The notes: generated from the sequence alone by a model not told the origin. A DNA stretch of 29,719 bases from Syntrophomonadaceae bacterium (GCA_003566935.1 PXBM01000152.1:1-29719); one strand, 5' to 3'. Shown: positions 5,787-28,321, counted from the stretch's first letter. Translations and numbers: made by a program.

Positions 5787-5795
5787 TGGTAGAAT
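5787..5795 (+). promoter_or_regulatory. Candidate extended -10 promoter element upstream of eda
   Basis: TG-G-TAGAAT at 5787-5795, about 40 bp before the start; -35 weak. Confidence 0.3.
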
Positions 5796-5833
5796 GGTTT
5801 ATAAAACTAAAATGCCATCGAGGAGGAACGAAA

Positions 5834-7524: not shown

Positions 7525-7560
7525 AAGATAGCTCCTTCCAAATGAAAAATAATAAATTCA

Positions 7561-9597: not shown

Positions 9598-9674
9598 AGA
9601 TCTAAATCGCTCCTTGCCTAAAATCTAAATTATTACGCTCCCCATGTTAATATCTTATGCTTTAGCCTTCTTTA

Positions 9675-11843
9675 CTAGCCTTTAATCACTCTACGATTCT
9701 TTTCAAAATCCAGCTCTAATTCATGTTCGCCTAGGGAAATGGTAAAGACAGTCTGTCCAAAATCTGTTTGACAGTAAGGATTATTAAAGCGGGGGTAATT
9801 TCGCAAAGGAATCTCTTTCCCGTCTAATATAAAGGGCCCTTCCCAGCCAACCTGGTATAAGCCATTACCGGGAGATTCATAATTTACCTTCAACCCGTCT
9901 ACCTCTACCAGGGCCCTGGCGATTGAATTGCTGAATTCCTCAAATGAACCGTCCACACTCTCTCGGCCTAAATGGCAGATCCATACATTTTGCCTTCCCA
10001 GAACAATTACTTCCTGGTCAGCATCAGGACCTTCCGTTTGCCATTCATAGGGCAAGTGTGAGTAAAGGGCCAGGTACCCTTTATTTCTGCGGCCCAGGAT
10101 CCAGCTGCCTTCTCCAGTGGCAGGAAATTCTTTGATCTCATCAAAAGCCCACCTGGGAAAATAGGCATGGGTAAAAGCGAAAAGCCCGGTGTCTTCCGCT
10201 CCAATCCCCTCCAGTAAATTGGGAATGCGATCAATATTGTAAATACTGATAAGCACGTTGCGATGCTGGACTGTTCGGGGGAAACGACCTTGAGAAGCCC
10301 AGTACCCGGGACGTCCCGCTCGAAGAGAGCCGGGATTGGTTACAAACACTACTGCGTAAGGATCCAGGGTAGCCTGCCAAATGTGATGCTGGTATCCTTT
10401 CTCTCCCTTGCGGTAATCCTGGGCACAGGAGAGCATGTAGTCGGGGCTACGGTAAGTTACCTTGTTCACCTGTGATTTTACCATTCCATTGCTATCGGGA
10501 CCCAACCATTCCACTCCCAGCCCCAGCAAACCCAACCTGGAGAGGGTTTGCCCCAGGTCGGCCAGGGGGGCAAAATCCGGATAGTGCCATAGGTCCCATT
10601 TATTGGCAGTATGCACTGTAAGATCTACTACTTTGGGATGGGTAAAAGCGTGCATAGCCCACCAGATAGGCACATCTTCTACATTATCAAAACTAAGGTT
10701 ATATTTTTCGGCCTCTGCTTCATTGACATTAATCGAATGCCGCTCATAATTGGTCATCTCTTCGGGCAAATCCTGACCTATTTTTTCTAAGACAGGTGGC
10801 AGGTTATAGCGCTCACTAGTGGCAAAAGAAACACTGGCAATGTTATCAGTGGATTGAAAGCGGCCCAAGCCCCACAATAGGGCCTGGGTTGTAACCAGGT
10901 TATCCCCGGCAGCGCTCTTGATATGCCGCACAGAGGCCCTCCCGTGAGATGTTCCATAATGGCCATAGAATGAATCGGCTGCCATATCCAGCAGCATTAT
11001 GTCCACCATAATTACAGCTTTTTGGGAAATCTCCTCGTCTTCCGCAAAGTCCACCAGGTTAAGTAAAGCCCCCATCATGTGGGCGTAATATGGGACAGAA
11101 TCCCATTCGGCAAAGCCAGTTCGCGCGCGCCAGTTCATCCATCGTAGAATTTTGGCCCGGGCGTGCTCCATGCGCCACCGCCCAGACTGGTCATTGTTAG
11201 TAAATGTTTCGTCAGGAAAAAGTTGTCCGGCCAGGTACTCGGCAGTGTGAACCAGGATCTGGTGATTTTCCGTCCACAGCTCCATCTTGGAGTCGGTAGG
11301 ATTAGGCTCATCCAGCCAGTACTTGAAATCCAGGAAAGTTTGCCTGATCGATTTTTTCTGGGCAGCAGTCAACAAATCGCCGTCGGCATGCTTGTAATAT
11401 ATACGTATTAAAGTCTGCATGCTGAAATCCGAGGTGTCTTCCCTGGAATTAACCTTGTCCAGCTCTTGCTGCAGCTTTGCCTGGGTCAAAGAAGATCCCA
11501 GTTCCATGCGGCAAAGATCCGCCCGCAAACCATCTACCTCTGCAGGCTCTTCTGCCACCCATTCCAGGTATGCCTGCCGTCTTTCTTCAAGAGATGGCTT
11601 TAAGGGTGTACGGTAAAAGGGAGGATCGCCGGGCGAAGGGCGCGAAGGGACAGGATCGCCTTCCCGAAAAGCGGGCCATTCCGGGCTTACCGCCCTTATT
11701 TCCCTGGCAATAATTCCACCTGCCACCCCGGCAGCAGCCAACCCGCCGCAACCAATGAGAAAAGATCGGCGGGTAATGCCGCTTTCACTTTTAAAGACAG
11801 CACCTTGTAGATTGCCCCCGGCAGGGTTTTTGTCAGTACTCAT
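9675..11843 (-). CDS. Uncharacterised WTENH-motif protein with twin-arginine (Tat) signal; paralog of 7561..9597
   Basis: ITRRSFLIGCGGLAAAGVAGGII matches the S/T-R-R-x-F-L consensus plus a hydrophobic region. The ATG at 11843 has good AGGAG spacing (GTG at 11852 is an alternative). Confidence 0.65.
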   Translation of the reverse strand: MSTDKNPAGGNLQGAVFKSESGITRRSFLIGCGGLAAAGVAGGIIAREIRAVSPEWPAFREGDPVPSRPSPGDPPFYRTPLKPSLEERRQAYLEWVAEEPAEVDGLRADLCRMELGSSLTQAKLQQELDKVNSREDTSDFSMQTLIRIYYKHADGDLLTAAQKKSIRQTFLDFKYWLDEPNPTDSKMELWTENHQILVHTAEYLAGQLFPDETFTNNDQSGRWRMEHARAKILRWMNWRARTGFAEWDSVPYYAHMMGALLNLVDFAEDEEISQKAVIMVDIMLLDMAADSFYGHYGTSHGRASVRHIKSAAGDNLVTTQALLWGLGRFQSTDNIASVSFATSERYNLPPVLEKIGQDLPEEMTNYERHSINVNEAEAEKYNLSFDNVEDVPIWWAMHAFTHPKVVDLTVHTANKWDLWHYPDFAPLADLGQTLSRLGLLGLGVEWLGPDSNGMVKSQVNKVTYRSPDYMLSCAQDYRKGEKGYQHHIWQATLDPYAVVFVTNPGSLRAGRPGYWASQGRFPRTVQHRNVLISIYNIDRIPNLLEGIGAEDTGLFAFTHAYFPRWAFDEIKEFPATGEGSWILGRRNKGYLALYSHLPYEWQTEGPDADQEVIVLGRQNVWICHLGRESVDGSFEEFSNSIARALVEVDGLKVNYESPGNGLYQVGWEGPFILDGKEIPLRNYPRFNNPYCQTDFGQTVFTISLGEHELELDFEKNRRVIKG

Positions 11844-11887
11844 CGCTGTCACTCCTCACTTATTTCTCCTTTAAAATTAGAGGCTGC

Positions 11888-12661
11888 TTAAGAAACCATA
11901 GCCTCAATTTTTTTCATAAAGGAAGCAATATCTTTACCGTATTCAGGAGAACCGTCCACGGTCAGGTAACCCAGTTTCATTGCTTCAACATTATCGATTT
12001 GCCCGGTTAGAACCTGGAAAGCCCCTTCATTACCGGAAAAAAGCATGTGCACAAATGGTTTACGCCTAGTGTATAAACCTTTGCCCGCCTTGGTGCGACC
12101 TTTTTTTATACGCAAGTAAGCTGCAGGACCATCAGGCGCTACCGACCACTGGAAAATACGATCAGGCATGGGACCGGTAAATATTTTCATCTCTTCGTCT
12201 CCGGCTTTATTTAGCTGAGATAGGGCTACCGAGATAAAGTAGAGCAGCATTTTTACTTTCAATGCTCTCTTTTGCGGATCTTTTGGTTTTTTTGAAGGCA
12301 GTAAAAGGGTCAGCCCGAGCATCAGGGGCAGGAATCCCGCCAGGGTGGTGAAATTTTTCAGCGCCCCCCTGATTTTTGGCAGGGCAATTTTCCCGGTCAT
12401 CAGGGCATTAAATGAGGCGGCATTTTTGAAGCAGAAGTCTATATCGGGATTATCGTGCCTGCCGCTGATATATTCAACCTTCCCATCATTAATGAATATA
12501 TGGCAGGCCAGATCCGGATCATTTTCCACCTGGAACTGGACAATTCTCTTCCAGCCCTTATATTTCTCAGCTAATTTCGGATTTTCTTCCACCAGGACCC
12601 TGGTCAGGGGGAGAGCTGCATTCATCAGTAACCTGGCTACAAGCTTTTCTTTATCAGCCAT
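11888..12661 (-). CDS. Tandem SCP2 (sterol carrier protein 2)-like lipid-binding domain protein
   Basis: Two repeats of an SCP2-like pattern: HIFINDGKVEYISG...PDIDF...FNALMTG, and AYLRIKKG...AFQVLTGQIDNVEAMKLGYLTVDG. GAGGAGG RBS. Confidence 0.55.
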   Translation of the reverse strand: MADKEKLVARLLMNAALPLTRVLVEENPKLAEKYKGWKRIVQFQVENDPDLACHIFINDGKVEYISGRHDNPDIDFCFKNAASFNALMTGKIALPKIRGALKNFTTLAGFLPLMLGLTLLLPSKKPKDPQKRALKVKMLLYFISVALSQLNKAGDEEMKIFTGPMPDRIFQWSVAPDGPAAYLRIKKGRTKAGKGLYTRRKPFVHMLFSGNEGAFQVLTGQIDNVEAMKLGYLTVDGSPEYGKDIASFMKKIEAMVS

Positions 12662-12682
12662 AAACAGCTAACCTCCTCTTTT

Positions 12683-13702
12683 TTATAGTTCATCTTCCCA
12701 GTCATCATCTTCTTCAACTTCTTTACCCAGCATCTCCGCCACCGCTTCGGTAATCCCTTCTGCATCAATCTTGTAAAGATTATAGAGGTCATCCGTTTGG
12801 CCTACAATGGCAAAAACATCAGGAATACCCAACCTTTTTAACCGACACGATTTACCCTCCTCGGTAATTACCTCGGCCACAGCACTGCCAAGGCCTCCTA
12901 TAACGCTATGGTTTTCTACAGTAATAATTTTTCGCGTGTCGTTAACCGCTTCAATAATCGCTTCACGGTCAATTGGTTTGATGGTATGCATGTTGAGCAC
13001 CCGCACCTCAATGCCCTGGCTTTCTTTCAGTTCTTTAGCCGCCTCCAAAGCTTGCAGCACGCAGGGGCCGCAGGCTATAACAGTTATATCACTGCCCTCG
13101 TGCATGGTTACAGCTTTGCCTATTTCAAAATCATAATTTTCTTTTTCATAAACAGTTTGCTCAAAACCACGGCCAATACGCATGTAGAGGGGGCCGGGAC
13201 GGTCCAGCGAAGCACGTACAGCATTGGCCGTTTCTATACCATCGGCCGGCACCACAACTGTCATATTGGCAAATGAACGCATCACTGCCAGATCTTCGGT
13301 GCAGTGATGAGTAGATCCGGCAGTTCCGAAAGATAGTCCCGAGTGTGTGGCAATGATTTTGCAATCAAGGTTCTGGTAACAGATGTCCGTACGAACTTGT
13401 TCACCAGCCCGCAGTGAAGCAAAGACAGCGAAGGTAGAAACAAAGGGTACGTACCCGGCCAGGGCTAACCCGGCTGCGATACCAAAGAGGTTTTGTTCGG
13501 CAATGCCCACATTAAAAAACCTTTCGGGATGCTTTTCTCCAAACTTGCCAATCTTAGTCGATTTAGCCAGGTCGGCCGTTAATGCGACTAGATCTTTTCT
13601 TTCTTCACCCAGCTGGGCCAGTACATGCCCATAAATTTCCGCCGGAGTCATATGGTCTGTATCATACACGCTATATGTGAGGCCTGATTCTTCACTCATC
13701 AT
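12683..13702 (-). CDS. Split transketolase, C-terminal (pyrimidine-binding plus C-terminal) subunit
   Basis: TADLAKST, ERFFNVGIAEQN, STFAVF, THSGLSFGTAGSTHH, LNMHTIKPID, ENHSVIGGLGSAVAE. AAGGAGG RBS. Confidence 0.93.
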   Translation of the reverse strand: MMSEESGLTYSVYDTDHMTPAEIYGHVLAQLGEERKDLVALTADLAKSTKIGKFGEKHPERFFNVGIAEQNLFGIAAGLALAGYVPFVSTFAVFASLRAGEQVRTDICYQNLDCKIIATHSGLSFGTAGSTHHCTEDLAVMRSFANMTVVVPADGIETANAVRASLDRPGPLYMRIGRGFEQTVYEKENYDFEIGKAVTMHEGSDITVIACGPCVLQALEAAKELKESQGIEVRVLNMHTIKPIDREAIIEAVNDTRKIITVENHSVIGGLGSAVAEVITEEGKSCRLKRLGIPDVFAIVGQTDDLYNLYKIDAEGITEAVAEMLGKEVEEDDDWEDEL

Positions 13703-13722
13703 AATCCTCCTTTCTTTATTCC

Positions 13723-14565
13723 TTAAATTTTGTTATACATGCGGTCAATCGATTTCAGGGCATCTTCGGCCATACTGGTATCAAGTCCACCGTAATGCCA
13801 TTCCGGTTTATCTTCCATGTAATCTACACCTTTACCCTTAACAGTGTGACAAATTATTACAGTTGGCTTATCATCAAGCTGTTGTGCCTTTTCTATCTTT
13901 TCACCAAGTGCTTTGAAATCGTGACCGTCACATTCAAGTACATTCCAACCGAATGCGGTCCACTTTTCCCCGATCGGTTCCAGCGACATCACATCTTCGG
14001 TGCATCCGTCAATGCAGTGCATGTTGCGATCAACAAAGCCGGTCAGGTTATTCAACTTATAATGGGCGGCAGCCATCGCCCCTTCCCAGATACTTCCTTC
14101 GGCCAGCTCGCCATCACCCATGATACAGTAAGTGCGCCAGTCCTTATTCTTTAATCTGGCACCCAGAGCCAGTCCGACGGCAATCGGCAACCCATGACCC
14201 AGGGAACCAGTTGATGCATCAAGGCCTTTTACCTTCAGACGGTCCAGGTGCATGCCAAAAAGCGAGCCAGTGTGGTTAAATGTTTTCAGCAGCTCTGAGG
14301 AGAAAAACCCTTTTTCGGCCAGAACCGGGGCCAGGCCAACACCGCCATGTCCCTTGCTAAGCACCATTCGGTCACGATCTTCCCATTGTGGGTTCTCCGG
14401 GTCAACCTTCATGTAGTGGAAGTAGAGAGCTACCAGGATTTCAACCTGGCTCAGTCCGCCGCCGATATGACCGCCACCCGCCCACTGGGTGGTTTGGACT
14501 ACACTACGCCTGATTTTCCAGGCTATTTCGTTCAATGTGCCAATTTCTTTTTCAGACAGGGCCAT
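13723..14565 (-). CDS. Split transketolase, N-terminal (ThDP-binding) subunit
   Basis: GGHIGGGLS, DRMVLSKGH, STGSLGHGL, ThDP motif GDGELAEG...VDRN, DGHD, TVKGKGV, WH. Confidence 0.93.
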   Translation of the reverse strand: MALSEKEIGTLNEIAWKIRRSVVQTTQWAGGGHIGGGLSQVEILVALYFHYMKVDPENPQWEDRDRMVLSKGHGGVGLAPVLAEKGFFSSELLKTFNHTGSLFGMHLDRLKVKGLDASTGSLGHGLPIAVGLALGARLKNKDWRTYCIMGDGELAEGSIWEGAMAAAHYKLNNLTGFVDRNMHCIDGCTEDVMSLEPIGEKWTAFGWNVLECDGHDFKALGEKIEKAQQLDDKPTVIICHTVKGKGVDYMEDKPEWHYGGLDTSMAEDALKSIDRMYNKI

Positions 14566-14608
14566 TTATCATACCTCCCATAAATAATGTAGAAATTAAC
14601 TATCTATA

Positions 14609-15886
14609 TTAAACTGCCAGGCAAGGCGATTTACCGTCCAGCGCACTCTTGACGGCTTTCATCGCCTCCTCGGCATGATTAAGCGTTTCCTTGATATCTA
14701 TTTCATCGTGGGCTACCGACAGAAACCAGTTGTGGTGGGGATGAAAGAAAGAACCCCTTTTAGTTACCTCCGAGCAGAAAAGCTGATTAAGGTAAAGGCT
14801 GGGATCATCACAGAAATGAATGAAAGGTATGGCTGGTGGCCCCGAAGGATTGATCTCCAGTCCGTGACGCTGCCCAATTTCCACCAGTCCGTCGATTAGT
14901 AGTTGTCCGCTTTTTTCCATCTTTTTAACCGCCTCAGTATTTTCTAACTCCTCAAGGGTAGCCAGAGCTGCAGCCATAGGCACAGCCGACATCCAGAAGG
15001 ATCCTGTAAAGAAAACCTTCGATGCAGCGGTCATCAGTTCTTTTTTGCCAACACAGGCCGAGATAGGGTATCCGTTACCCACGGCCTTGCTGAAGCAAAT
15101 CAGGTCCGGCTTAAAACCGAAATATTCATTTGAACCGCCCAGGTTTAAACGGAAACCGGCCCGCACATCATCAAGGATCAAGACTATTTCTTCCTCGCGA
15201 CAAATCTTTTCTACCCCTGTCCAGTAACCTTCAGCCGGTAGCTCCTGCCTGCCGAAAGTAATGTGATGGTACGGCATAGCAATAAAAGCAGCTATTTCTC
15301 CGCGATTTTCCTTTGCCATCTGCCGAAAACCATCAAGGTCGTTCCATTCTACCTGAAGGGTATTCTGACGATCTTCAGCAGTAACACCACCGTGTCCATA
15401 ACTGGTACACCACGGCGCCACCCCGTGATAGTGGCCGCGAACAGTTATTACTTTTTTTCGGTTTGTATGAGCCCTTGCGGCCAGGGTAGCATAAGTAGTC
15501 ATATCGCCTCCATTTTTGGCGAAAAAAGCCCAGTCAGCAATGGGTACCATGTCTACCAGCTTTTCTGCCAGCTCAACCATAACCGGTCCCGGATGATTTG
15601 TAGTATCAGCCATTTTTCGCTGGGCTTCCGCTGCCCCGTCTATCACAGGGTTTCCATAACCCAAGACCATCGGTCCGTAAGCACACATATAATCGATGAA
15701 CTCATTTCCATCAATATCCTTATAGCGGCAGCCATTTGCCTCCGCCGTGTAATAAGGATATTCACCCGGCACCATCGCCGTAGGTGACATGTGGCCGTAT
15801 ATTCCGCCTGGTATCAACGTGGCCGCTTTTTCAAACAGCTCCATACTTTTATTATAAGTGTAAGTTTTTCTACCATTCTCTTTCAC
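14609..15886 (-). CDS. Class III (fold type I) PLP aminotransferase, glutamate-1-semialdehyde-aminomutase-like but divergent
   Basis: DIDGNEFIDYMCAYGPMVLGY, LILDDVRAGFR, PDLICFSKAVGNGYPISA (PLP Lys), FTGSF. GTG start at 15886 after GGGAGG. Confidence 0.88.
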   Translation of the reverse strand: MKENGRKTYTYNKSMELFEKAATLIPGGIYGHMSPTAMVPGEYPYYTAEANGCRYKDIDGNEFIDYMCAYGPMVLGYGNPVIDGAAEAQRKMADTTNHPGPVMVELAEKLVDMVPIADWAFFAKNGGDMTTYATLAARAHTNRKKVITVRGHYHGVAPWCTSYGHGGVTAEDRQNTLQVEWNDLDGFRQMAKENRGEIAAFIAMPYHHITFGRQELPAEGYWTGVEKICREEEIVLILDDVRAGFRLNLGGSNEYFGFKPDLICFSKAVGNGYPISACVGKKELMTAASKVFFTGSFWMSAVPMAAALATLEELENTEAVKKMEKSGQLLIDGLVEIGQRHGLEINPSGPPAIPFIHFCDDPSLYLNQLFCSEVTKRGSFFHPHHNWFLSVAHDEIDIKETLNHAEEAMKAVKSALDGKSPCLAV

Positions 15887-16012
15887 AATATATACCTCCC
15901 TCCAAACCATTCTTAAATTCTTCAACCCAATTGCTGCAACCTTAAATTAACAAATCAGAATTAGAACATCGTTGTAATAATATGTTTATGGCAGCCCATT
16001 TTTATTACATCT

Positions 16013-16786
16013 CTAACCCGACAGGTAAAGGGACAAACGGTCCAGGATAGGATTTATACCATCGATCAGCGGTATAAGCCCGCGAATCTTCACTTTTTTA
16101 CTGCCAATAGCTGCAAACTGGTCCATTTCGCCCTGCAGCATAATCCAGGCTGACTGAAGATCTTCAAACTCAAGGTAAGCACATGGTTCTACTGCCCTCC
16201 CCTTACCGGGATTAAATAAACCATTTTCCACTTCCAGATGAACGGCAGGTCCATCTTTAACCCTGATTTCCACTATGCCCCGGGGTAGATTTCTGGCCAG
16301 GGGGATCATATCAGGGTCTTCTTCACCTATGACCTTTACCCCGTAAACCATGGCATACAGGGTCAGCCTTACACAGTTGGAAAAGGCTTCGGGATCACTT
16401 AAAAGGTCTTCATCCGGCTCCAGGTAATACTCTATTTTTTTTAAGAGCGAATCAACTTTTAACAGCTCTTTTAGACGAAACAGACCATAAAGGTTCGGAC
16501 GAGGGCTTTTATCAGATTTTCCCTGGAAAACAGCATTAAGCGTTGCTGCATTGCTGAAAGTAAGCACCGCTGCAGGACCTGGAGATCTCGCCCGCCATGC
16601 TTCGACCGTACCTTCTTTAAACAAAAGGCTTGAAGCATGCAGACCGCCTGGTAGTTGAAACTGCAGGTTAAAATTCCAATCCTTTATAATGTCTCTAACC
16701 TCTTCATCAATTTCAGCAATATCCTCTAAAAGAGGAACAACAGCTTTGAGATAAATAGCAGCCAGTACACTTTCACTTAATACCAT
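16013..16786 (-). CDS. Tandem SCP2-like lipid-binding domain protein, paralog of 11888..12661
   Basis: Collinear with 11888..12661 (WNFNLQFQL/WKRIVQFQV; FSNAATLNAVFQG/FKNAASFNALMTG; GPAVHLEVENG/GPAAYLRIKKG). SCP2-type tail LQGEMDQFAAIGSKKVKIRG. ATG at 16786 after GGGGTG. Confidence 0.55.
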   Translation of the reverse strand: MVLSESVLAAIYLKAVVPLLEDIAEIDEEVRDIIKDWNFNLQFQLPGGLHASSLLFKEGTVEAWRARSPGPAAVLTFSNAATLNAVFQGKSDKSPRPNLYGLFRLKELLKVDSLLKKIEYYLEPDEDLLSDPEAFSNCVRLTLYAMVYGVKVIGEEDPDMIPLARNLPRGIVEIRVKDGPAVHLEVENGLFNPGKGRAVEPCAYLEFEDLQSAWIMLQGEMDQFAAIGSKKVKIRGLIPLIDGINPILDRLSLYLSG

Positions 16787-16994
16787 TCCTTTTTCACCCC
16801 ATTTTCTATCTTGAAGAAAATACAAACAACTCTTTATGACAATTCGCTCAAAACAACTTGCTGAAGAAAGATATAAACAAGCAAATGAAAAATAATTTTA
16901 TTTAGCACAACCATTTTTACTGTTTCATCATAAGGCTGCTGCAATGTGTCAATAAATTGATGATCAGCTCAATGTGCCATGATAATAAATTGGA

Positions 16995-18098
16995 TTAACG
17001 CTCCCAGCTATTTTTTATAGTCACGCCCAGGTTCTCAAGTTCACCTATAAACTGGTCCGGGTTGTCGATTAACCTTTCTGCAGCGTATATACCGCCTGGT
17101 TTCTGATTCCATTTTCCCTCGGCAAGCCATTTAGCTGCCAAATAACAGGGAAGAGAAGTGATATCGGCAATGTGCCCCACATAGCAAAAGCTTACTTGTT
17201 CGTTTTGCCCTGAACTATTTTGTCCGCTAACATCAACCCTTCCAACAGATTTGTTGTTACCTGAAGAAGCAAACCAGCTTTCAATACGGTGAAAAAATCG
17301 AGCAGCAGCAAGCCGCTTTTTATGATTCGAAGTAAGACCCAGGGCTGCCAGTAATTTTAAAAGGGTTACTATGTATGGGGGCTTTACGCCACCATGCAGG
17401 GTAACTTCTGTTAACCCGGGCAGATTGCGGGGCAGAGAAACAGATTCGGCATGCCCGGTATAATAGACCGGATTTAGGCCAATTGGATCCGGAAAATGGA
17501 CATTTTTTTTACCAGTCCCGGTTTTTACGCTAACCTCGTTACCATTCAGCCATTGCAGGGTAGTGCCGGTAAATATATGAAAAAGATGGGCCAGGTTTGA
17601 AGGGCCTACGGGCTCATCAGATCCTGCACACCAGTGGACATTTATTTTTTCCGGCTTATCTAGAGCAAGGTAGCCTTTTTTTGCTAAAACCTGGGTTAAG
17701 CCTGGCGAATTTCCGAACCCGGTTAAAATTTTTATGCCTTTTGTGCAGGCCTCCTCCTCGAATTTCAGGATCTCAAGGTACGCATCATAGTCATCGCTGA
17801 TAGAAATATAGTCCCTCCCGGCTTCAAGAGCAGCTTTAACCATTATTTTTTCATAATAGTAGAATGGGCCAATATAGCCGATTGAAAAATCATGTTCTTG
17901 CATAAGGCATACCAAAAGCGAAAAATCATTAGCATTTACATAAGCTGATTTAAACTTTCGTTTCTTCCCTGCAATTTCTTCCGCTTTTTCCTTGTTTAAA
18001 TCTGCTACCGTCACTTCTGTAAAGGCGCTGTCGTCAGCAAGTTTGGATATAAGAGGTCCAGCCATATCTGCACAACCACCGAGCAGTAATACTTTCAT
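16995..18098 (-). CDS. Saccharopine dehydrogenase family NAD(P)-binding oxidoreductase
   Basis: N-terminal Rossmann strand-loop, VTVADLN, IGPFY, YISISDD, GFGNSPGL, YYTGHAES. The ATG at 18098 is the properly spaced start after AGGAG. Confidence 0.8.
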   Translation of the reverse strand: MKVLLLGGCADMAGPLISKLADDSAFTEVTVADLNKEKAEEIAGKKRKFKSAYVNANDFSLLVCLMQEHDFSIGYIGPFYYYEKIMVKAALEAGRDYISISDDYDAYLEILKFEEEACTKGIKILTGFGNSPGLTQVLAKKGYLALDKPEKINVHWCAGSDEPVGPSNLAHLFHIFTGTTLQWLNGNEVSVKTGTGKKNVHFPDPIGLNPVYYTGHAESVSLPRNLPGLTEVTLHGGVKPPYIVTLLKLLAALGLTSNHKKRLAAARFFHRIESWFASSGNNKSVGRVDVSGQNSSGQNEQVSFCYVGHIADITSLPCYLAAKWLAEGKWNQKPGGIYAAERLIDNPDQFIGELENLGVTIKNSWER

Positions 18099-18156
18099 AA
18101 AGGCCATCTCCTAACTTTTGCATCAAGGAAACCATCTCCCTGACACTCTTGATCTG

Positions 18157-18522
18157 CTATTCCGCATCCAGCCGCTCGCTGGCTTGAATGTTTAGAGGAC
18201 CTACTTCCCTGGTTTGCAGAACAATAGTTATTTCATAATTACCCGGATCAGGGGCCGCTTCAGGGACATGGATGACTGCCTTTTCTTTTAGCCCGAAATG
18301 AAGGGCATTGTCATTGCTTAAATCTTTACCGGGAATGGTTTTGTCGGATAGTCTTATAATTACATTTTCCGTATAATCTTTATCGTTTAAAATAAGGCTG
18401 TTTATACCGACCAGGTGAGCAGGAGCTACCGGGTTGATCAGGGTAAAAGCTAATCCGCCTTCCAGGAAGGTTAGGGAGCCCTTTACAAAAATCTTTTTCA
18501 ACATAAAGGGTGGTATTTGCAT
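18157..18522 (-). CDS. Small uncharacterised beta-rich protein (MQIPPFMLKKIFVKGSL type)
   Basis: 121-aa ORF with AAAGGA RBS, tightly packed in the operon, with alternating beta-strand patterning. I recall similar N-termini in hypothetical proteins but cannot confirm a family. Confidence 0.6.
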   Translation of the reverse strand: MQIPPFMLKKIFVKGSLTFLEGGLAFTLINPVAPAHLVGINSLILNDKDYTENVIIRLSDKTIPGKDLSNDNALHFGLKEKAVIHVPEAAPDPGNYEITIVLQTREVGPLNIQASERLDAE

Positions 18523-18540
18523 CAGGTTTCATCCTTTCTT

Positions 18541-20577
18541 TTATCTACTTAATCGAATTGTAACCTCATAATACTTTTCTTCTCCGCTTTTTAACTCAAG
18601 ACTACTGCACCAGGCAATCTTTTGGTGATAACCTTTACCTGTTGAAGAAGGTTCCATAACTTCCCATTTGCCATCACCCAGGGTCGTTTGGACTACTTTG
18701 AAAAATAATGAACCCTTAGGTGTAAAATAGTTAAACCCATTTTCATTAAGCTCATAACTATAACCTTTATCACAACGTAATGAAAGCCCTGGCGCTCCTA
18801 CAAGACGGCCTTTGAAAGCATCATTAGCATATAAAGTGGTTCTAATCCTTAATAGTTCGGCTTCCATGATATAGGTTTGCTTAAAACGCAACCCGCTATA
18901 GGAGATTTCAATTTCAGGATGACCTTCTTTATCTTTTCTTATTTTTCCGCGGTTTATAGGAACCTCAATAGTAGAGTCGGGTAACTCAAGATCCGGAAGA
19001 TCTGAAGTAGACCATTCACCTTCTCGCAGAGATTGTTCAAGAACAGGCAGCATGGTTTGACAACCCTGCAATCCAAGCATGGCAAGACCGGCTACTCCTG
19101 TATTATGAACCCCGGAATGAGGATAAGGTGATATATCACTGCCTGAGAAAATAACATAATAAAAATGTTCATTGCTCTGTGCAGCAAGCCGGGAACCTGG
19201 ATAAATAAGTAAGTTTTCTTTTTCAAGCTCCAGCGGTTCTTCCTGCCAGTTATCGGGAACCAGGTTCAGGCTTCGTATTAAAAAGTAAGCATTGGTGCCG
19301 TTGTAAGGAGTCTGGCAATGGCTCCAACCAATTAATTCTTCCGGGTAACTGTTAAGTCCAACAGGATAATTACCCTCACTCAACTTGAAAGGCCTGATAT
19401 AATCCAGGACTAACCGGACAGCACGGTAAAATCGAGGTGCAAGATCGTCCCTATGAGAAGCAACTTTCAAGTATACATAAATCGATGATACTAAGTGGTA
19501 TATATTGTTAGCCGATCTGCCAAGGTAAGATACTTCACCACCCGGTGTAGTCATTGAAAGGCTAAACAAAGCACCCTTCTCAAGCATTAACCATACTTCT
19601 TCCAGTGGAAGATAATCATAACCGCGAGCCAACCACGAAAGCGCATAAAGGTGATAAGTAAGGTCGTGGGCATCGTTGTAACCGCCAAAAGAGATTTCTG
19701 AGTAGTTGTTGTCCTGGATTAAACCATCGACAGTCTGGTCCTGTTTCAGCCGGCTGAGAAGTGAATGAGGGTCATAACTGCTCTTTACGCCCTGAATTTT
19801 TTCCAGGTAATAGTTAAGCAGTGACCACCAATGATAGCGCAGGGCGTAAACATTAGTGGGGGAGTACTCCTCATTAGTAATCATTTCATCATATAAAGAT
19901 CGCCAGCGTACAATATCCACATCTTCAGATTTTCCAACCATAAATTCTTCCACTGTCTCAATATAGGCCGGATTTTTAAAATCACAGTGGGGCATCCCGT
20001 CTAAGTATGTCGCTTCATAGCGAGGGTATATCCGCGTGATAAAGTCAAGAGCAGCCTTAGCGGCCTCCAGGTAATGGTCGCCGTAACCGTTAGCTGCCAT
20101 CCAACCGAAAGCATAGGCTGAATACGCATCAGCATAATAAGTTCCTGCTACCTGCGGTTCAAAAAGAAAGGCTTCCATATTAACCAGTTCATCGAAAATA
20201 CCACCACTGTCATAGGCAATCAGCTTTAACTCATTATTATTTTCACCGCAAAATCCACTGAATTGATATGTAATACCACCTTCACCATTAGCAGGGTTTT
20301 TTATCTTGTGACCGGGATAAAGCCGGAAAAACTGACCTTCTTTAACCTGCAAGAAACTGTTCTCTCCTTCTTCGGTATTTACCAGAAGTATGTCACCCTC
20401 CCGCTTTGCTATAAAAGCATATGGACCCGGATCTTTACGAATAAAGTGGTATTGCAAACTGGCTTGTTCTCCGTTTTTCAGAGAACAGGAAATATCTTCT
20501 GCAATGACCTGGTAATTATAGAGATATTCATTCATACTCCATATCTCTTCTTTTATTATCCTGCTTATATCATTCAC
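18541..20577 (-). CDS. Uncharacterised 678-aa protein, probably a helical barrel/toroid plus C-terminal beta domain (carbohydrate-active-like)
   Basis: Long ORF whose RBS lies within the end of the upstream gene. The aromatic-rich helical core (YLEAAKAALDF, HDLTYHLYALSWLA, TPGGEVSYLGRS) is followed by a beta-rich C-terminus. Function is inference only. Confidence 0.5.
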   Translation of the reverse strand: MNDISRIIKEEIWSMNEYLYNYQVIAEDISCSLKNGEQASLQYHFIRKDPGPYAFIAKREGDILLVNTEEGENSFLQVKEGQFFRLYPGHKIKNPANGEGGITYQFSGFCGENNNELKLIAYDSGGIFDELVNMEAFLFEPQVAGTYYADAYSAYAFGWMAANGYGDHYLEAAKAALDFITRIYPRYEATYLDGMPHCDFKNPAYIETVEEFMVGKSEDVDIVRWRSLYDEMITNEEYSPTNVYALRYHWWSLLNYYLEKIQGVKSSYDPHSLLSRLKQDQTVDGLIQDNNYSEISFGGYNDAHDLTYHLYALSWLARGYDYLPLEEVWLMLEKGALFSLSMTTPGGEVSYLGRSANNIYHLVSSIYVYLKVASHRDDLAPRFYRAVRLVLDYIRPFKLSEGNYPVGLNSYPEELIGWSHCQTPYNGTNAYFLIRSLNLVPDNWQEEPLELEKENLLIYPGSRLAAQSNEHFYYVIFSGSDISPYPHSGVHNTGVAGLAMLGLQGCQTMLPVLEQSLREGEWSTSDLPDLELPDSTIEVPINRGKIRKDKEGHPEIEISYSGLRFKQTYIMEAELLRIRTTLYANDAFKGRLVGAPGLSLRCDKGYSYELNENGFNYFTPKGSLFFKVVQTTLGDGKWEVMEPSSTGKGYHQKIAWCSSLELKSGEEKYYEVTIRLSR

Positions 20578-20580
20578 AGG

Positions 20581-21930
20581 TTAACCTCCTTCCCTTTTAT
20601 TTTTACTTCTTGACCTCTGTGTAGTGAGAAGTTCTACCGATTTTTCTGTGATTTTTCTTCCTGCATCTTTCGAAAGACGACTGGTGTATACAGTGCGGTG
20701 CGTTTCATACCCGCCCCGATTGAAGGCCTCTTCAGTGGGAACATATCCGCAGTAGCCATTTGTCAACTCAAAAATCAGCGTAGCAGGGAAAGGGGATTTT
20801 TGCCTAACTTCCAGACCGAACTCACAAAATAGCTCTGCCGGATTTGTTACTATTGCTATATTGCCTATCTTTATAAAGTCAATTTCGACCACGCAGCTTT
20901 GTAGCCCCATCTTTTCCAAGGCACCTTTTTCCGGATCATACCGCAGTCTCGCATATTCCAGTTCCCAGGGGCCTTCACCTCTACAGCCATCTTCGCAAAA
21001 ATTTGACTCGCTTAGTGGGCGATCTTCAATTATTAATATTTCACTTTCATGTTCAAGGCAGGGATTGTCATGCACCGTTAATTTTTTAAGAACAGATATG
21101 ATTTTTTCTGCATAAAAACTGCTGATTTCTGCGGCAACTTTTTCCTGGCTGGGGCAGGGTTTTCCTAACTCCGGCCTGGGTAGCAGATTGCCTGATGGGG
21201 CGGGGATAACTGCAGCTGACTGCAGGGAAGGAAAAGCCTCTCTTAAACGGCTGCTGATTATACCATATATATCGCTGTGGTAAAAACCGCCACCAAAGCT
21301 ATCGCAACAGTTATTATGAAAAGCCGGGTTTACAATAAGAGCCACATAGTTATTTTCCAGGTCTTTGAATGCAAGCAAGCCTACAGTTTCGTCAATCGGG
21401 CCTTCAGCAGGAAGGTTATCAGACCACTGCTCAAAAGAATCAACTATTCGAATCGTCCCGTCAGATTTCAACCTCCTCCTGTTCCCAATTCTTCCTGGCA
21501 CCTTGATTTCTATTGCACCAACTTCTGCCGGCTGTCTTTTTTTACGGGCGTCTTCAACACCTTCAATAATTCTTGATATCAACATTTCCAGATAGAGAGG
21601 GTCAGGGGTTCCACCCGTTATAAAAGTAGGGCAGACCGTGGGAGCATTATGAGTATGGGTTGCCGAAACAATAACTCTGTCAGGTTTTATTCCCAACCGA
21701 TATCGGCATTGATCCCTGATGCGAAGAACCAGGGATCGATCAATAAAACTTAAATCAGCACTAATAAAAATAACTTCCTCACCACCGCGGCAGCAATAGA
21801 TTATGCTGGCATGAAGAGCTGTCTCTTCAGGACCTGGTTCATATTCAGTGTTGTTGTAATTAACCATTGCTGCGCTGGGTGTAATATCTACATTAGCTGC
21901 ACCAATCATGAACATGTCCATTTCTTTCAT
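20581..21930 (-). CDS. Neutral/alkaline ceramidase-like (N-terminal domain family) metal-dependent hydrolase
   Basis: IGAANVDITP, ISADL, IVSATHTHNAP, NRR, AFHNNC, PAELF, ELTNGYCGYVPTEEAFNRGGYE. The start could be 21930, 21921 or 21912. Confidence 0.75.
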   Translation of the reverse strand: MKEMDMFMIGAANVDITPSAAMVNYNNTEYEPGPEETALHASIIYCCRGGEEVIFISADLSFIDRSLVLRIRDQCRYRLGIKPDRVIVSATHTHNAPTVCPTFITGGTPDPLYLEMLISRIIEGVEDARKKRQPAEVGAIEIKVPGRIGNRRRLKSDGTIRIVDSFEQWSDNLPAEGPIDETVGLLAFKDLENNYVALIVNPAFHNNCCDSFGGGFYHSDIYGIISSRLREAFPSLQSAAVIPAPSGNLLPRPELGKPCPSQEKVAAEISSFYAEKIISVLKKLTVHDNPCLEHESEILIIEDRPLSESNFCEDGCRGEGPWELEYARLRYDPEKGALEKMGLQSCVVEIDFIKIGNIAIVTNPAELFCEFGLEVRQKSPFPATLIFELTNGYCGYVPTEEAFNRGGYETHRTVYTSRLSKDAGRKITEKSVELLTTQRSRSKNKREGG

Positions 21931-21948
21931 CCTTTTATGATTATCTAT

Positions 21949-23781
21949 TTATTCAAACTGCTTCACCGGTTCCCGTGGTTCCAATTCCGCCTGCCCCGAT
22001 ATCTCTTTTATGACAATGTAGCGCTGCCATTGGGGATCCCGCCGTGGTAAGGGGGTATTGTCAGTCGGGCAGGTAAAGCGCAGGTGGGGACCCCTGCTTT
22101 CATCCCTCAACTGGGCAGACCTGAGCACTACTTCAGCCAGTGTGGTCATGGCAGGCAACTCCACGGCCTGAACCAGTCCTGAAGAATCCATTTCGAATGG
22201 CATTTGCCTCAGCTCTTCCAGGAGAACCAGTCCTTCCTTAAGCCCTTCGGCAGTCCGGACCACTCCGGCACAGCTGCTCATTATTTTCTGCAGCCGGGAG
22301 AGATATTCGCTGGCAGTAAGGCCTCTTGACTTATAAAGATCGTCAACCTTCTCAAGAATAATGTCCACTTCACTTTTTGAAATAGCCCTTGCTTCGGTCT
22401 GCTTTGCCCTTAAAGCAGCCTGGGCCCCGGTTATTTTACCGAACACCTGGCCATCAAGAAGGGCATTTCCGCCTGGCCGGTTGGCCCCATGCTGCCCTCC
22501 GGCGCACTCGCCTACAGCGTATAAACCTCTTACCGCAGTTTCTCCCCGGTCGTTAATCTTAATCCCACCCTGGAAGTGCTGTGCACAGACAGCCACTTCT
22601 ACCATTTCGCCACTGGTTATATCTATTCCGTGCTTTTCAAGCCACGAAACAGAATCGGGATTAATCTCCTGCAGGCGTTTTAGCGGGCTTTCCTCACGTT
22701 CCTGCAAACTAATTTCATTTTTTATCTCTCCCCTGTATCGTTCTTTAAGTGCACTCTCTACTTGCTGGTATGTAAACCCTCTCGGGTTTTTGGAATAATC
22801 GAGATAAACCTTTCTGCCGTTTTTCCGTTCTTTATAAACAGCAATATCTATAATGCGGGTATCGTGTTCGTAGCTAACTGGCCAGGTAGCGCCCTTGCGG
22901 AAAATGAGGCCTGGTAAATCTGAAGGGTCTATCCCTTCAGGTAAGTAGTCACTGATAAATTCCCGGCCTTGATCATTAACAAATCTCGGGAAGGCCCGCA
23001 TCATGCTGCCAGAGCAATTTAACCTGGTTTTCACAGAAGCTATCCCAAACTGAATAAACTCCATATTTACAAGTTCCGCACCGGCCCTGTAAGCTAGAAT
23101 TGCGCCACTGCCGCTATTGCCTCTGGGGAATACATTGTCTGCATAAATAAGTCCTCCGCCACCACTGGCCATAATTACGGATGAAGCGTTAACCACCAAA
23201 AGTTCTTCCCCCTGGCGACTTTCAAGCAGGCCAATTGCTCCCCTGATGCCTTCATTGTCTGAAATCAGCTCAATGATTGAGCAGTTTTCAAGTAACCCTA
23301 TATTGTTTCTTTTAAACTCTTCAACCAGGGCTTGTTCTATATGCACAGCTGTGTATGGGCCTGTGTAGCAGGCCCTGGCATAGTGAGATCCATCTGTTAC
23401 AAACTGATCTGTTTTTCCATCACATGTAACAAAAGGAACACCCAGTTTTAGCAAATATTCAAAAGCCTCACAGGCATTGGCTGCCAGAATAGCCGCCAGG
23501 TTTGCATCTGATACACGGCCCCCTATTTCGTAAATATCCCTGGCATGGTAAAACCATGAATCTTCACAAAGAGGTTCAGTATGCGGCAGGGTAGCATGAA
23601 AAGCCATCCGATCCGAACAGGCAAGGGCAGTCACCCCGCTCTGGCCAAGCTTTCCTTTTGTCGCCAGGTATATAGAAGTTTGATCATCCTGTCCACGTGC
23701 CGCCAGGGCAGCCCGAATACCACCGCCACCACCTCCGACAACGAGGATATCACATGTGATTTCATGAATATTTAACTTCAT
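21949..23781 (-). CDS. FAD-binding oxidoreductase of the SdhA/FrdA/NadB (FAD_binding_2) superfamily, stand-alone
   Basis: DILVVGGGGGG, VIMASGGGG, GAELVNMEFIQF, QHFQGGI, GLYAVGECAGGQHGANRPGGNALLDGQVFG, RDESRGPHLR. Confidence 0.85.
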   Translation of the reverse strand: MKLNIHEITCDILVVGGGGGGIRAALAARGQDDQTSIYLATKGKLGQSGVTALACSDRMAFHATLPHTEPLCEDSWFYHARDIYEIGGRVSDANLAAILAANACEAFEYLLKLGVPFVTCDGKTDQFVTDGSHYARACYTGPYTAVHIEQALVEEFKRNNIGLLENCSIIELISDNEGIRGAIGLLESRQGEELLVVNASSVIMASGGGGLIYADNVFPRGNSGSGAILAYRAGAELVNMEFIQFGIASVKTRLNCSGSMMRAFPRFVNDQGREFISDYLPEGIDPSDLPGLIFRKGATWPVSYEHDTRIIDIAVYKERKNGRKVYLDYSKNPRGFTYQQVESALKERYRGEIKNEISLQEREESPLKRLQEINPDSVSWLEKHGIDITSGEMVEVAVCAQHFQGGIKINDRGETAVRGLYAVGECAGGQHGANRPGGNALLDGQVFGKITGAQAALRAKQTEARAISKSEVDIILEKVDDLYKSRGLTASEYLSRLQKIMSSCAGVVRTAEGLKEGLVLLEELRQMPFEMDSSGLVQAVELPAMTTLAEVVLRSAQLRDESRGPHLRFTCPTDNTPLPRRDPQWQRYIVIKEISGQAELEPREPVKQFE

Positions 23782-23784
23782 TTT

Positions 23785-24882
23785 TTAATCCTCCATCTTA
23801 ATAACTGCTTTAAGGGCCTCTTTTTCTTCCATAGCTTTGAGAGCAGCTGTAGCATTTTCAAGTTTGAAGCGATGACTGATCATTTCCCTGAAAAGAATAG
23901 GATTCTGCAGAACAAGGCTGTAAGCCATATAGGTATGACGGATGTCGCTAACCCATACCCCCTGGATATGCAGGTTACGTTTGACAATATGATTGAAACA
24001 GTCCAGGGCAGCCCGGCCCCTTGGTTCTCCAAATCCTGCCATCATATATACTCCACCCGGGCGAACCAGGGTGACCCCTTCTTCAACTACTTCCGGCAGC
24101 CCTACTGCCTCAAAAGCATAATCAACACCCCTGCCACTGGTAGCTTCCATTATAATTTGTCGGCGTTCTTCGCTGCTGTTTGCGTGACGATCCAGCAAAA
24201 TATCTGCACCGAAGCGCCTGCACATTTCCAACCTTGATGCAGTTCCGCCGATTACGATTATCTTGCCTGCCCCAAGGGCCCTGGCAAAGGCCACCGCAAA
24301 AAGACCCAGTGGCCCGGGACCCTGAACCAGTACGCTATCACCAATTGAGGGAGATACCATATCAAAAGCATGGGCAGCCGTAGAACCTGAACAGGTTGCA
24401 GCCACCAGCACCGAGTGTTCTATTTCTCCTGGGACAGGGAAAAGAGTTGTTCCGGCATCAAGCAGAATATGTTCAGCATATGCTCCTCGCAGGTGCGGGG
24501 CAGACTCAGAAGACCTGTTTATACCGTAAACCAGTCGATTCTGGCATAGTGAAGGCTCTTTAACAATGGCACAATAGTAGCATTCACCACAGGTTAAACC
24601 GCGGTGCCAGAGCACGGCGTCGCCCTCTTTGATCCTGTTACCCATAATATCGTGACGCTCTCCTGTAAGAGCAGTTACCCTGCCTACACCTTCGTGGCCC
24701 AGGATGATAGGTAACGGTGTCCGGGGATCTTCCCCTTTCCACATATGGACATCAGACCCACAGACCCCGGCTGCAGTAACCTTAACCAGCACTTCCTTTT
24801 CGCCTGGATCTGGAAGGAGAAATTCTCTCATCTTTAGAGGTTTATTAAATTCTTCCAGGACCATCGCCCGGCTTTTCCCCAT
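23785..24882 (-). CDS. Zinc-dependent alcohol/polyol dehydrogenase (MDR superfamily, resembling Thermotoga TM0436-type)
   Basis: GVCGSDVH, ILGHEGVG, structural Zn motif CGECYYC...C, GPGPLG. From memory, GEDPRTPLPIILGHEG and VYGINR...PHLRG resemble the TM0436-like subfamily. Confidence 0.88.
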   Translation of the reverse strand: MGKSRAMVLEEFNKPLKMREFLLPDPGEKEVLVKVTAAGVCGSDVHMWKGEDPRTPLPIILGHEGVGRVTALTGERHDIMGNRIKEGDAVLWHRGLTCGECYYCAIVKEPSLCQNRLVYGINRSSESAPHLRGAYAEHILLDAGTTLFPVPGEIEHSVLVAATCSGSTAAHAFDMVSPSIGDSVLVQGPGPLGLFAVAFARALGAGKIIVIGGTASRLEMCRRFGADILLDRHANSSEERRQIIMEATSGRGVDYAFEAVGLPEVVEEGVTLVRPGGVYMMAGFGEPRGRAALDCFNHIVKRNLHIQGVWVSDIRHTYMAYSLVLQNPILFREMISHRFKLENATAALKAMEEKEALKAVIKMED

Positions 24883-24919
24883 AACAGTTCACCTCGGAAA
24901 TAATTTGTCAATCCGTAGT

Positions 24920-25765: not shown

Positions 25766-25771
25766 TTTATA

Positions 25772-27277: not shown

Positions 27278-27314
27278 ACCTCCCTTTCGATTAACTTAGT
27301 GAGTCATGGCAATG

Positions 27315-28295: not shown

Positions 28296-28321
28296 TTTAC
28301 CATGATCTCCTTTGCTTCTAT

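Follow-up and report, generated by a model that had tools for sequence, protein, structure and literature searches.

The question raised by this 29,719-nt stretch of DNA from a Syntrophomonadaceae bacterium (GCA_003566935.1, PXBM01000152.1:1-29719, hereafter the window) is whether a block of nine genes at 11888-21930 encodes one pathway. The original prediction was that the whole block degrades sphingoid bases without phosphorylation: a ceramidase-like hydrolase was to release the base, a class III aminotransferase to convert it to a 2-keto-diol and a split transketolase (TK, subunits TK-N and TK-C) to cleave the product, with two tandem sterol carrier protein 2 (SCP2) proteins, SCP2x2-A and SCP2x2-B, presenting the lipid. 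All nine open reading frames (ORFs) were present on the minus strand with intergenic gaps of 20-170 nt, and domain scans (Pfam, NCBIfam) confirmed every item that had been listed for the block. The core of the scheme, from the aminotransferase through a 2-keto-diol to TK cleavage with lipid presentation by SCP2, drew support from the relationship of the aminotransferase to FumI, an Asp469-to-Ala change in the TK, the pairing of the genes and a predicted protein interface; the wider pathway did not. The stretch is composite, with a self-contained five-gene module (11888-16825) embedded within a uronate-oligosaccharide catabolic operon, and annotating the window by adjacency would wrongly merge two unrelated systems.

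For the five-gene module we favor, at a probability of about one half, a catabolic role in which long-chain, sphingoid-like 2-amino-1,3-diols are cleaved by an undescribed route. A cytosolic tandem-SCP2 protein would extract such a sphingoid-base-like lipid from the membrane and transfer of its C2 amino group by the aminotransferase onto a 2-oxoacid would yield a 1,3-dihydroxy-2-ketone. The variant TK, the pocket of which lacks the Asp that reads the C4/alpha-hydroxyl of sugars, would then cut between C2 and C3. SCP2x2-A, itself docked on the tail of TK-C, would take charge of the plain fatty aldehyde that is left, and the glycolaldehyde unit bound to thiamine diphosphate (ThDP) would pass to an acceptor aldehyde. 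A full-text literature search found no description of an SCP2/transketolase/aminotransferase cluster or of a TK-based sphingoid or sphingolipid route.

Loci were collected with an alignment-based scan seeded on SCP2x2-A using one genome per species (80 loci), to which three were added from contig look-ups, and all window proteins were run by tblastn against the resulting 83 loci. The SCP2x2-A relatives all lack names and their hosts were uncultured, mostly anaerobic bacteria across many phyla, Syntrophomonadaceae and Hydrogenedentota among them. TK-C was found in 74 loci, TK-N in 72 and the aminotransferase in 48, and none of the 83 contained a homologue of the ceramidase-like, 678-aa, 121-aa, saccharopine dehydrogenase (SacDH)-like, flavoprotein, TIM-barrel, symporter or Gfo/Idh/MocA genes of the window. 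The order seen in the window (SCP2x2-B, aminotransferase, TK-N, TK-C, SCP2x2-A) was present in 34 loci and 26 held only TK-N, TK-C and SCP2x2-A. Five others carried the genes permuted (TK-N, TK-C, SCP2x2-A, SCP2x2-B, aminotransferase) with both pairs intact, an order also observed in one contig-cut locus without TK-N, and SCP2x2-B was the sole missing module gene in a further five. SCP2x2-A stood alone in nine loci, three of which were contig-edge truncations with a TK-C tail just upstream and six of which were from Planctomycetales. Overall, SCP2x2-A lay directly downstream of TK-C in 74 of the 83 loci and SCP2x2-B directly upstream of the aminotransferase in 41 of the 48 loci that have one. 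An aminotransferase orthologue (47%-55% identity) was located elsewhere in four of five genomes whose TK locus has none, and SCP2x2-B was still directly upstream of this unlinked gene wherever the flank was available. These gene architectures resolve the unit into two enzyme-carrier pairs, in which the aminotransferase and the TK each have a tandem-SCP2 protein of their own. De novo clustering of the neighbors in the 83 loci revealed no further conserved gene, the best extra clusters reaching at most nine loci and being partly antisense artefacts of GC-rich DNA.

Since this first search had been seeded on the SCP2 protein, reverse tests were started from the enzymes in a sample of 401 genomes of the window's phylum; these genomes are partly related, so that the counts are not independent events, and at least four families were spanned. 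A match to the split-TK C-subunit was obtained in 337 genomes and the 29 best loci outside the window were examined. Four contained the motif FGxAG..THH, all four with SCP2x2-A immediately downstream, versus none of the other 25 split TKs, of which 20 had GEDG, two GADG or GPDG, and three other variants. A fifth copy of the module, cut by a contig end in genome G268, contained SCP2x2-B, the aminotransferase, TK-N and TK-C. Aminotransferase orthologues (E <= 1e-90) were restricted to nine of the 401 genomes, which included all six with the variant TK, and SCP2x2-B was directly upstream in six of the eight outside the window genome. The check proposed with the original prediction, whether these enzymes usually occur without SCP2-like partners, did not refute it. 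The module is variably present even within a genus, as no SCP2x2-A homologue was found in G468, a 90% complete genome of the same genus as the window genome.

The best match of the aminotransferase in the Protein Data Bank (PDB) was FumI from Sphingopyxis sp. MTA144 (6HBS; E 7e-104, 351 bits, residues 27-426, approx. 45% identity), with which it shares the class III fold and a conserved region around the pyridoxal phosphate (PLP) lysine. The next-best matches were glutamate-1-semialdehyde aminomutases at no more than 162 bits, and this full-length similarity well above that to other subfamilies, together with the PF00202 match, places the protein among FumI-type enzymes. FumI differs in that its substrate is 1-deoxy and that it belongs to an aerobic alphaproteobacterial fumonisin cluster; to our knowledge no SCP2 partner has been reported for it, and no transketolase is known to be involved in what becomes of its keto product. 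FumI deaminates hydrolysed fumonisin B1, a C20 2-amino-3-ol and sphinganine analogue, at C2, with pyruvate or other 2-oxoacids as amino acceptors, and the product is a 2-ketone (PMC3136697, PMC2933618). The relationship to FumI is the strongest single clue to the substrate class of the module; at 45% identity it is still only a clue.

The closest structures for the two TK subunits were those of the split TK of Carboxydothermus hydrogenoformans (TK-C, 6YAJ, E 7e-83; TK-N, 6YAK, E 2e-75). Like this and other split TKs the module enzyme is encoded by two genes, has about half of its residues identical, and retains the ThDP site and the catalytic His and Glu residues. The ThDP/Mg motif GDG(X)n N was found in the window TK-N as GDGELAEG ... 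DRN, and GDGE..[EG]G and DRN were kept in the module TK-N of 72 loci. Equivalents of the cofactor Glu and of E. coli His26, 66, 100, 261, 461 and 473 were present and conserved family-wide, and the window segments GIAEQN, GGGHIGG, SKGHGG, GMHLD, WHYGG and TH..THH aligned to 6YAJ/6YAK. As DXS enzymes replace His100 (PMC13663882), its retention argues for a hydroxylated ketol donor and not one of the pyruvate type.

The module TKs differ from canonical split TKs in their active-site motif, in the neighbors of catalytic His residues, in an additional DWEDE tail and in the obligate SCP2x2 neighbor. GEDG..THQ was replaced by G[QSTPA]AG..THH in every alignable module TK-C (72 of the 74 in SCP2x2-A-seeded loci and the four of the phylum sample), such that the equivalent of Asp469 is Ala in each of them (codon 13319-13321 in the window). 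Residues beside the catalytic His were also changed family-wide, from GHP to MHL and from SGHPGG to GGxH[IVL]GG. The equivalent of Arg358 was Ala in the window, variable across the family and present in part of the module TKs, and those of Ser385, His461 and Arg520 were kept; the combination of Asp469 and Arg358 that was looked for as a mark of sugar-phosphate recognition was accordingly not found in the module TK. In TKs the 2-hydroxyl of the acceptor aldose is recognized by Asp469. Substitution of this residue is the classic means of extending the acceptor range to non-natural, non-hydroxylated or aromatic aldehydes (PMC13663882 and the work it cites). Of the split TKs assayed in that study, a natural one with the equivalents of EcoTK L382A and D469L converted the most pentanal, and changes of this type were linked by the authors to acceptance of aromatic acceptors (PMC13663882). 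The window genome also carries a full-length Tkt (GEDG, ATR, SRQ; contig C146) and a Dxs (contig C238), both with GEDG, and the split TK is therefore regarded as a specialized paralogue. Three split-TK variants without an SCP2 neighbor were observed as well (L105, G268:C48; L106, G241:C154; L107, G229:C34), one having GNGG..THH with two in-frame TAA stops (a possible pseudogene) and two having TTG-AGPTHY, and GEDG has therefore been lost in more than one split-TK lineage.

SCP2x2-A and SCP2x2-B are paralogous (24% identity, E 1e-14) and both scored above the Pfam SCP2 cut-off. The AlphaFold (AF2) model of SCP2x2-A (pLDDT 94.8) contained two tandem SCP2 units, and Foldseek matched it to the SCP2-like domain of alkylsulfatase, to sterol carrier protein 2 and to UbiJ, all of which bind alkyl or isoprenoid ligands. 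In the AlphaFold database (AFDB) the SCP2x2-A fold was found fused to MaoC dehydratase, MFE-2-like and aldehyde:ferredoxin oxidoreductase (AFOR) proteins. One such AFDB cluster, A0A3N1VQ59, is an 825-aa AFOR apparently with SCP2-fold domains, which hints that anaerobes use SCP2 domains for hydrophobic aldehydes.

Module TK-C proteins are about 10 residues longer than canonical split TKs, which align only to about residue 321-332, and the extension is a nearly invariant acidic tail, ..E.D[ED][DN]WEDE[VFILDY] (EVEEDDDWEDEL in the window). A tail of the [DEN]W[EDQA]DE type was found in 76 of the 83 loci and that of L039 was one residue shorter; every locus with TK-C had a tail, and it was missing only from the six Planctomycetales loci, which have no TK. 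No comparable conserved tail was present on the aminotransferase or on TK-N. A predicted complex of TK-N, TK-C and SCP2x2-A scored 0.66 and the best of three controls 0.06; a score of 0.66 was attained by 51 of 78 solved complexes, and by two of 108 mismatched pairs. Confident predicted contacts joined TK-C 335-339 to SCP2x2-A residues 14, 18, 64, 66, 145, 148-149 and 189-194, overlapping the invariant or near-invariant SCP2x2-A columns P18, A146-S148, G188, K191 and G193, and the conservation of both contact surfaces is independent of the complex model. The model supports, and does not show, docking of the DWEDE tail on SCP2x2-A.

Additional neighbors were observed at individual loci. In L002 (2656-19961, a Desulfobacterota metagenome-assembled genome) a TetR regulator, two APC permeases and an alanine dehydrogenase surround TK-N, TK-C and SCP2x2-A, and the locus also contains a further pair of class III aminotransferases on either side of a 119-aa SCP2 protein with a single domain, MoxR AAA+ and VWA proteins, a 2-hydroxyacyl-CoA-dehydratase pair and an AFOR. 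AAA+ and VWA genes also lie 3' of SCP2x2-A in L003, and so does a VWA_CoxE gene in L083. The Planctomycetales loci (L028, 8910-10762; also L017-L019, L021 and L082) encode SCP2x2-A homologues of about 50% identity and no transketolase; a gene of the ketopantoate-reductase type precedes SCP2x2-A in all six, which in L028 is an ApbA/PanE-type 2-ketoreductase directly upstream, with an aldehyde dehydrogenase nearby. A carrier of the SCP2x2-A type may serve other enzymes acting on keto or hydroxy lipids. Aldehyde dehydrogenase or AFOR was also considered as a fixed downstream step of the module and was rejected, being rarely adjacent.

Some of these neighbors bear on another explanation, that the module acts on a small soluble amino-alcohol or amino-sugar (a 2-amino-2-deoxy-alditol or a serinol-type compound) derived from the glycan of the surrounding operon, with the SCP2x2 proteins having a structural or regulatory role. 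The module of the window does lie inside a sugar operon with a GPH symporter, 2-keto-3-deoxygluconate (KDG) kinase and 2-keto-3-deoxy-6-phosphogluconate (KDPG) aldolase, TK genes in L002 are surrounded by permeases, further aminotransferases and alanine dehydrogenase, Ser385, His461 and Arg520 equivalents are conserved, and polar ketoses are the usual substrates of transketolases. Nevertheless we consider this explanation unlikely: the module recurs in at least 80 loci of many phyla without recurrent sugar genes, the Asp that reads a sugar hydroxyl is Ala in all alignable members, the nearest characterized aminotransferase uses a C20 lipid-like amine, and two dedicated SCP2-fold proteins would be hard to explain if the substrate were soluble.

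A number of points weigh against cleavage of a long-chain amino-diol and we have to admit them here. Lipid binding by the SCP2x2 proteins is suggested by their fold alone, and a 45% identity to FumI does not fix the substrate. The FumI substrate has no C1 hydroxyl, which a TK donor needs. The kept Arg520, Ser385 and His461, with Arg358 in part of the family, would be compatible with a phosphorylated partner substrate, and the amino-acid permeases and alanine dehydrogenase of L002 hint at a smaller soluble amine in some lineages. Aldehyde-oxidizing neighbors, which could take up the aldehyde product, were rare (AFOR in two of the 83 loci, aldehyde dehydrogenase in one). Stereochemistry is a further difficulty. 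Natural D-erythro sphingoid bases would give the 3R ketol. The characterized TKs, including ten split TKs, are 3S-selective (PMC13663882). With fumonisin B1 being 2S,3S, enzymes of the FumI type act on threo compounds, and the ketols derived from these would match the 3S preference of a TK. Either the natural substrate is threo-configured or the altered TK pocket shifts the stereopreference. The original prediction had offered the TIM-barrel protein at 24920..25765 as a C3 epimerase for this step; its gene was absent from the 83 module loci and travels with the sugar operon in genome G240, which lacks the module.

The same selectivity would yield a defined threo product if the module ran in the opposite direction, joining a fatty aldehyde and a ketol donor (hydroxypyruvate or a ketose phosphate) into a 1,3-dihydroxy-2-ketone and aminating it to a sphingoid-like base independently of serine palmitoyltransferase. 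Both reactions are reversible, cascades of TK and omega-transaminase yield 2-amino-1,3-diols in vitro, and the module is self-contained and found in housekeeping-like contexts in many genomes. However, clustering of the neighbors of the 83 loci gave no recurrent fatty acyl reductase or gene of the ceramide-synthase type, and the variable presence of the module within a genus also speaks against a biosynthetic role, which we judge distinctly unlikely. The catabolic direction is favored because FumI is catabolic, because TetR, alanine dehydrogenase and AFOR genes are neighbors in some loci, and because the hosts, Syntrophomonadaceae and Hydrogenedentota among them, include fatty-acid-oxidizing syntrophs and lipid-degrading candidate phyla.

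The established route from a sphingoid base to a fatty aldehyde, sphingosine kinase followed by sphingosine-1-phosphate (S1P) lyase, likewise cleaves C2-C3. That route needs ATP and a PLP-dependent lyase and releases phosphoethanolamine, whereas in the route proposed for the module nitrogen would leave first, by transamination, and the C2 unit would stay on ThDP. As the original prediction had noted, no kinase/S1P-lyase pair was present in the window, nor did a search of the genome, which is 64% complete, give any Pyridoxal_deC match above the cut-off. The genome does encode DAGK_cat kinases, but most bacteria have these and nothing can be concluded from them. Engineered cascades of TK (E. coli Asp469 variants) and omega-transaminase use the same two reaction types on 2-amino-1,3-diols, and are laboratory constructs that run synthetically, use short substrates and have no carrier proteins. 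Disposal of sphingoid bases by bacteria, above all by anaerobes, is barely known, and even the product of Pseudomonas aeruginosa sphBCD is unidentified (PMC11398299). If the favored reading is correct, the module would provide an ATP- and O2-independent alternative to the kinase/S1P-lyase pathway, the first natural lipid-acting transketolase and a natural counterpart of a well-known synthetic cascade, and docking of the invariant DWEDE tail on a tandem-SCP2 protein would represent a new means of linking a soluble ThDP enzyme with a lipid of the membrane. For biocatalysis on hydrophobic aldehydes, the variant TKs are candidates as they stand.

The two orphan genes of the block, encoding proteins of 678 and 121 aa, had been counted among the pathway members and are better placed elsewhere. 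The 678-aa protein is rare: a scan of 300 further genomes from the phylum found it in one, and the collection search gave only 33 proteins at E <= 1e-10. Its AF2 model (pLDDT 91.9, built on 25 homologues) has a beta-sandwich, an (alpha/alpha) toroid and a second beta-sandwich, and Foldseek matched it over about 600-660 aligned columns (E 5e-10 to 1e-7) to the polysaccharide lyase family 15 (PL15) exo-alginate lyase Atu3025, glycosaminoglycan lyases (PL8 among the families matched), PL33, heparinase III (PL12), PL17 and dermatan sulfate epimerase. The predicted three-domain architecture is that of polysaccharide lyases, and the context of KDG kinase and KDPG aldolase is likewise shared with Atu3025, heparinase III, PL17 and PL33; the 678-aa protein differs from these in its low identity (approx. 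10%), the lack of a Pfam family and the separate or fused 121-aa partner. Residues H197, N202, Y308, H309, Y311, R354, N358 and H420 were invariant in the family, and distant homologues lie beside glycosyltransferase, sulfotransferase and 3'-phosphoadenosine-5'-phosphosulfate genes, or beside Gfo/Idh/MocA. The 121-aa gene adjoins the 678-aa homologue in G240 and G479. In P0246, P0248 and P0252 the small domain is fused to the N-terminus of a lyase-fold protein, a Rosetta-stone link which suggests that its Pfam name, HMG-CoA_red_N, is misleading.

In G240 a LacI-headed operon contains homologues of the upstream sugar genes of the window (43%-56% identity) clustered behind the LacI gene, namely a zinc alcohol dehydrogenase (Zn-ADH), the flavoprotein, the TIM barrel, the GPH symporter and Gfo/Idh/MocA, together with the 678-aa and 121-aa genes, both ~700-aa paralogues and an old yellow enzyme (OYE)-type flavoprotein. 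This operon held no aminotransferase, TK, SCP2, SacDH-like or ceramidase-like gene, and SCP2x2-A was found nowhere in the genome. The lyase fold, the operon context, the KDG kinase and the KDPG aldolase mark a uronate-oligosaccharide catabolic operon, and judged from homology and the fold model the 678-aa protein and its 121-aa partner belong to a LacI-type uronate-glycan operon separate from the module. Contigs from a metatranscriptomic run on alkali sediment, mostly 90%-95% identical to the window, covered much of the island and spanned the borders of SCP2x2-A with both TK-C and the 725-aa gene. They show that the embedding of the module in the sugar operon is common to a sister strain; that they stem from an RNA library is no proof of transcription or co-transcription.

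Neutral ceramidases are genuine, if distant, relatives of the 449-aa protein, which aligned with PDB 4WGK/2ZWS on the THTH..P and C-terminal Tyr motifs, with ATHTHNAP at the Zn-site HxH (GTHTHSGP/ATHTHSGP in the ceramidases) and GYCGYVPT..GGYETHRT on the Tyr-rich segment. Full-length ceramidases have about 650-690 aa and a C-terminal beta domain; the window protein is some 200 residues shorter, two stretches passed for Pfam PF04734 with the best covering profile positions 417-500 of 509, and no C-terminal domain was matched. Its closest kin form a large bacterial family of uncharacterized ~438-aa proteins, and it is a probable Zn amidase. Its gene occurred in three of 401 phylum-sample and three of 149 class-sample genomes and was missing (E <= 1e-25) from the other five phylum-sample genomes with the module, and three of the four other genomes that carry it lacked the module. 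The only other module-bearing genome with the gene, G479 of the same order, has it unlinked: one contig carries SacDH-like (71% identity), ceramidase-like (48%), lyase-fold (60%), 121-aa and Exo_endo_phos genes and the five-gene module lies on a different contig. A 449-aa ORF at the matching position in G240 was also considered as a ceramidase-like protein and rejected, as it is an OYE-type flavoprotein. By comparative analysis the ceramidase-like amidase has no demonstrated link to the module or to the sugar operon; its gene is generally unlinked to the module, and a link within this order is conceivable.

These distributions bear on the reading of the whole 10-kb block as one sphingolipid pathway, in which the ceramidase-like enzyme frees the base, the orphans and SacDH assist, and the aminotransferase and TK cleave. 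All genes of the block point the same way, the gaps between them are short and no terminator inside the block was convincing, the 449-aa protein retains the ceramidase HxH and Tyr motifs, SacDH adjoins SCP2x2-B and the aminotransferase in two Myxococcota, and G479 clusters SacDH, an acylase, the ceramidase-like gene, the lyase-fold pair and Exo_endo_phos, a superfamily that includes sphingomyelinases. Yet the ceramidase-like, 678-aa, 121-aa and TIM-barrel genes do not occur in the module loci, the ceramidase-like gene and the module are mostly found in different genomes, and the polysaccharide-lyase-fold gene resides in the G240 operon with neither, so that we regard a single pathway as very unlikely and could not retain the ceramidase-like enzyme as its base-releasing step.

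The SacDH-like gene may be read as an occasional accessory of the module. The order SacDH, SCP2x2-B, aminotransferase was found in two related Myxococcota (47% identity, with a HAD hydrolase next), and the gene was missing from four of five module genomes tested. It was rejected as a universal sixth module gene since, besides these absences, its orthologues of 57%-63% identity were singletons in unrelated contexts. In the G479 cluster (L134, G479:C13, 4880-18434) two URO-D-type methyltransferases, a corrinoid protein and an Fe-S activator precede the SacDH-like gene, which is followed by a 795-aa acylase of the penicillin-amidase type, the ceramidase-like, lyase-fold and 121-aa genes and Exo_endo_phos; this cluster may serve a glycoconjugate that is N-acylated and possibly bears a methylated amine.

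A broader explanation would take the whole island of ~23 kb in this organism as a dedicated system for glycosphingolipids with a uronic acid; the ceramides of Sphingomonadaceae that carry glucuronosyl or galacturonosyl groups are examples. On this view the sugar acid would be dealt with by enzymes of the toroid lyase type and by the KDG branch, deacylation would fall to the ceramidase-like amidase, and the aminotransferase/TK module with its SCP2 carriers would cut the long-chain base without ATP or oxygen. We regard this as a long shot and highly improbable.

The features of the window are presented in Table 1. A promoter and terminator scan of 9500-24000 gave counts at the level of shuffled sequence and operon boundaries could not be called.

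Table 1. Coordinates of the module, its motifs and the surrounding genes in the 29,719-nt window.
Feature	Position	Strand	Description
SCP2x2-A	11888..12661	-	257 aa; Pfam SCP2; tandem-SCP2 protein, dedicated transketolase partner
TK-C	12683..13702	-	Pfam Transket_pyr + Transketolase_C; Pyr and C-terminal domains of split transketolase, variant subfamily
TK-C active-site motif THSGLSFGTAGSTHH	13304..13348	-	stands where canonical TH..G.GEDG..THQ would be
TK-C acidic C-terminal tail EVEEDDDWEDEL	12686..12721	-	candidate docking peptide for SCP2x2-A
TK-N	13723..14565	-	Pfam Transketolase_N; ThDP-binding subunit of split transketolase
FumI-like class III aminotransferase	14609..15925	-	Aminotran_3, PF00202 E 4e-41
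SCP2x2-B	16013..16825	-	270 aa; Pfam SCP2; tandem-SCP2 paralogue, dedicated aminotransferase partner
SacDH-like NAD(P) oxidoreductase	16995..18107	-	Pfam Sacchrp_dh_NADP/C
121-aa HMG-CoA_red_N-like protein	18157..18522	-	weak Pfam match, E 1e-12
678-aa lyase-fold protein	18541..20577	-	no Pfam family
449-aa ceramidase-like protein	20581..21930	-	weak Pfam Ceramidase_alk match, E 8e-10
Upstream sugar genes	21949..28358	-	SdhA/NadB-like flavoprotein, Zn-ADH, xylose-isomerase-like TIM barrel, GPH symporter, Gfo/Idh/MocA (Pfam/NCBIfam)
Downstream sugar genes	6496..11852	-	two paralogous ~700-aa proteins and KDG kinase
KDPG aldolase	5732-6487	+	downstream of the minus-strand genes of the sugar operon

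The paralogous ~700-aa proteins (7561-9597 and 9675-11852) are 41% identical to one another and have no Pfam family. They also occur in tandem in the G240 operon (54%-56% identity to the 725-aa protein) and are probably further glycan-active enzymes of the sugar operon. The first is, like the lyase-fold protein, 678 aa long; a paralogous relationship between these equally long proteins (7561-9597 and 18541-20577) was considered and rejected. Two flavoproteins were observed at the upstream side: that at 21949-23781 is SdhA/NadB-like without partner subunits, in a place similar to that of the OYE flavoprotein in G240, and that at 28322-29476 is a dihydroorotate dehydrogenase (DHOD)-like flavoprotein fused to a 2x[4Fe-4S] domain. 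Both may be ene- or keto-reductases of the uronate branch.

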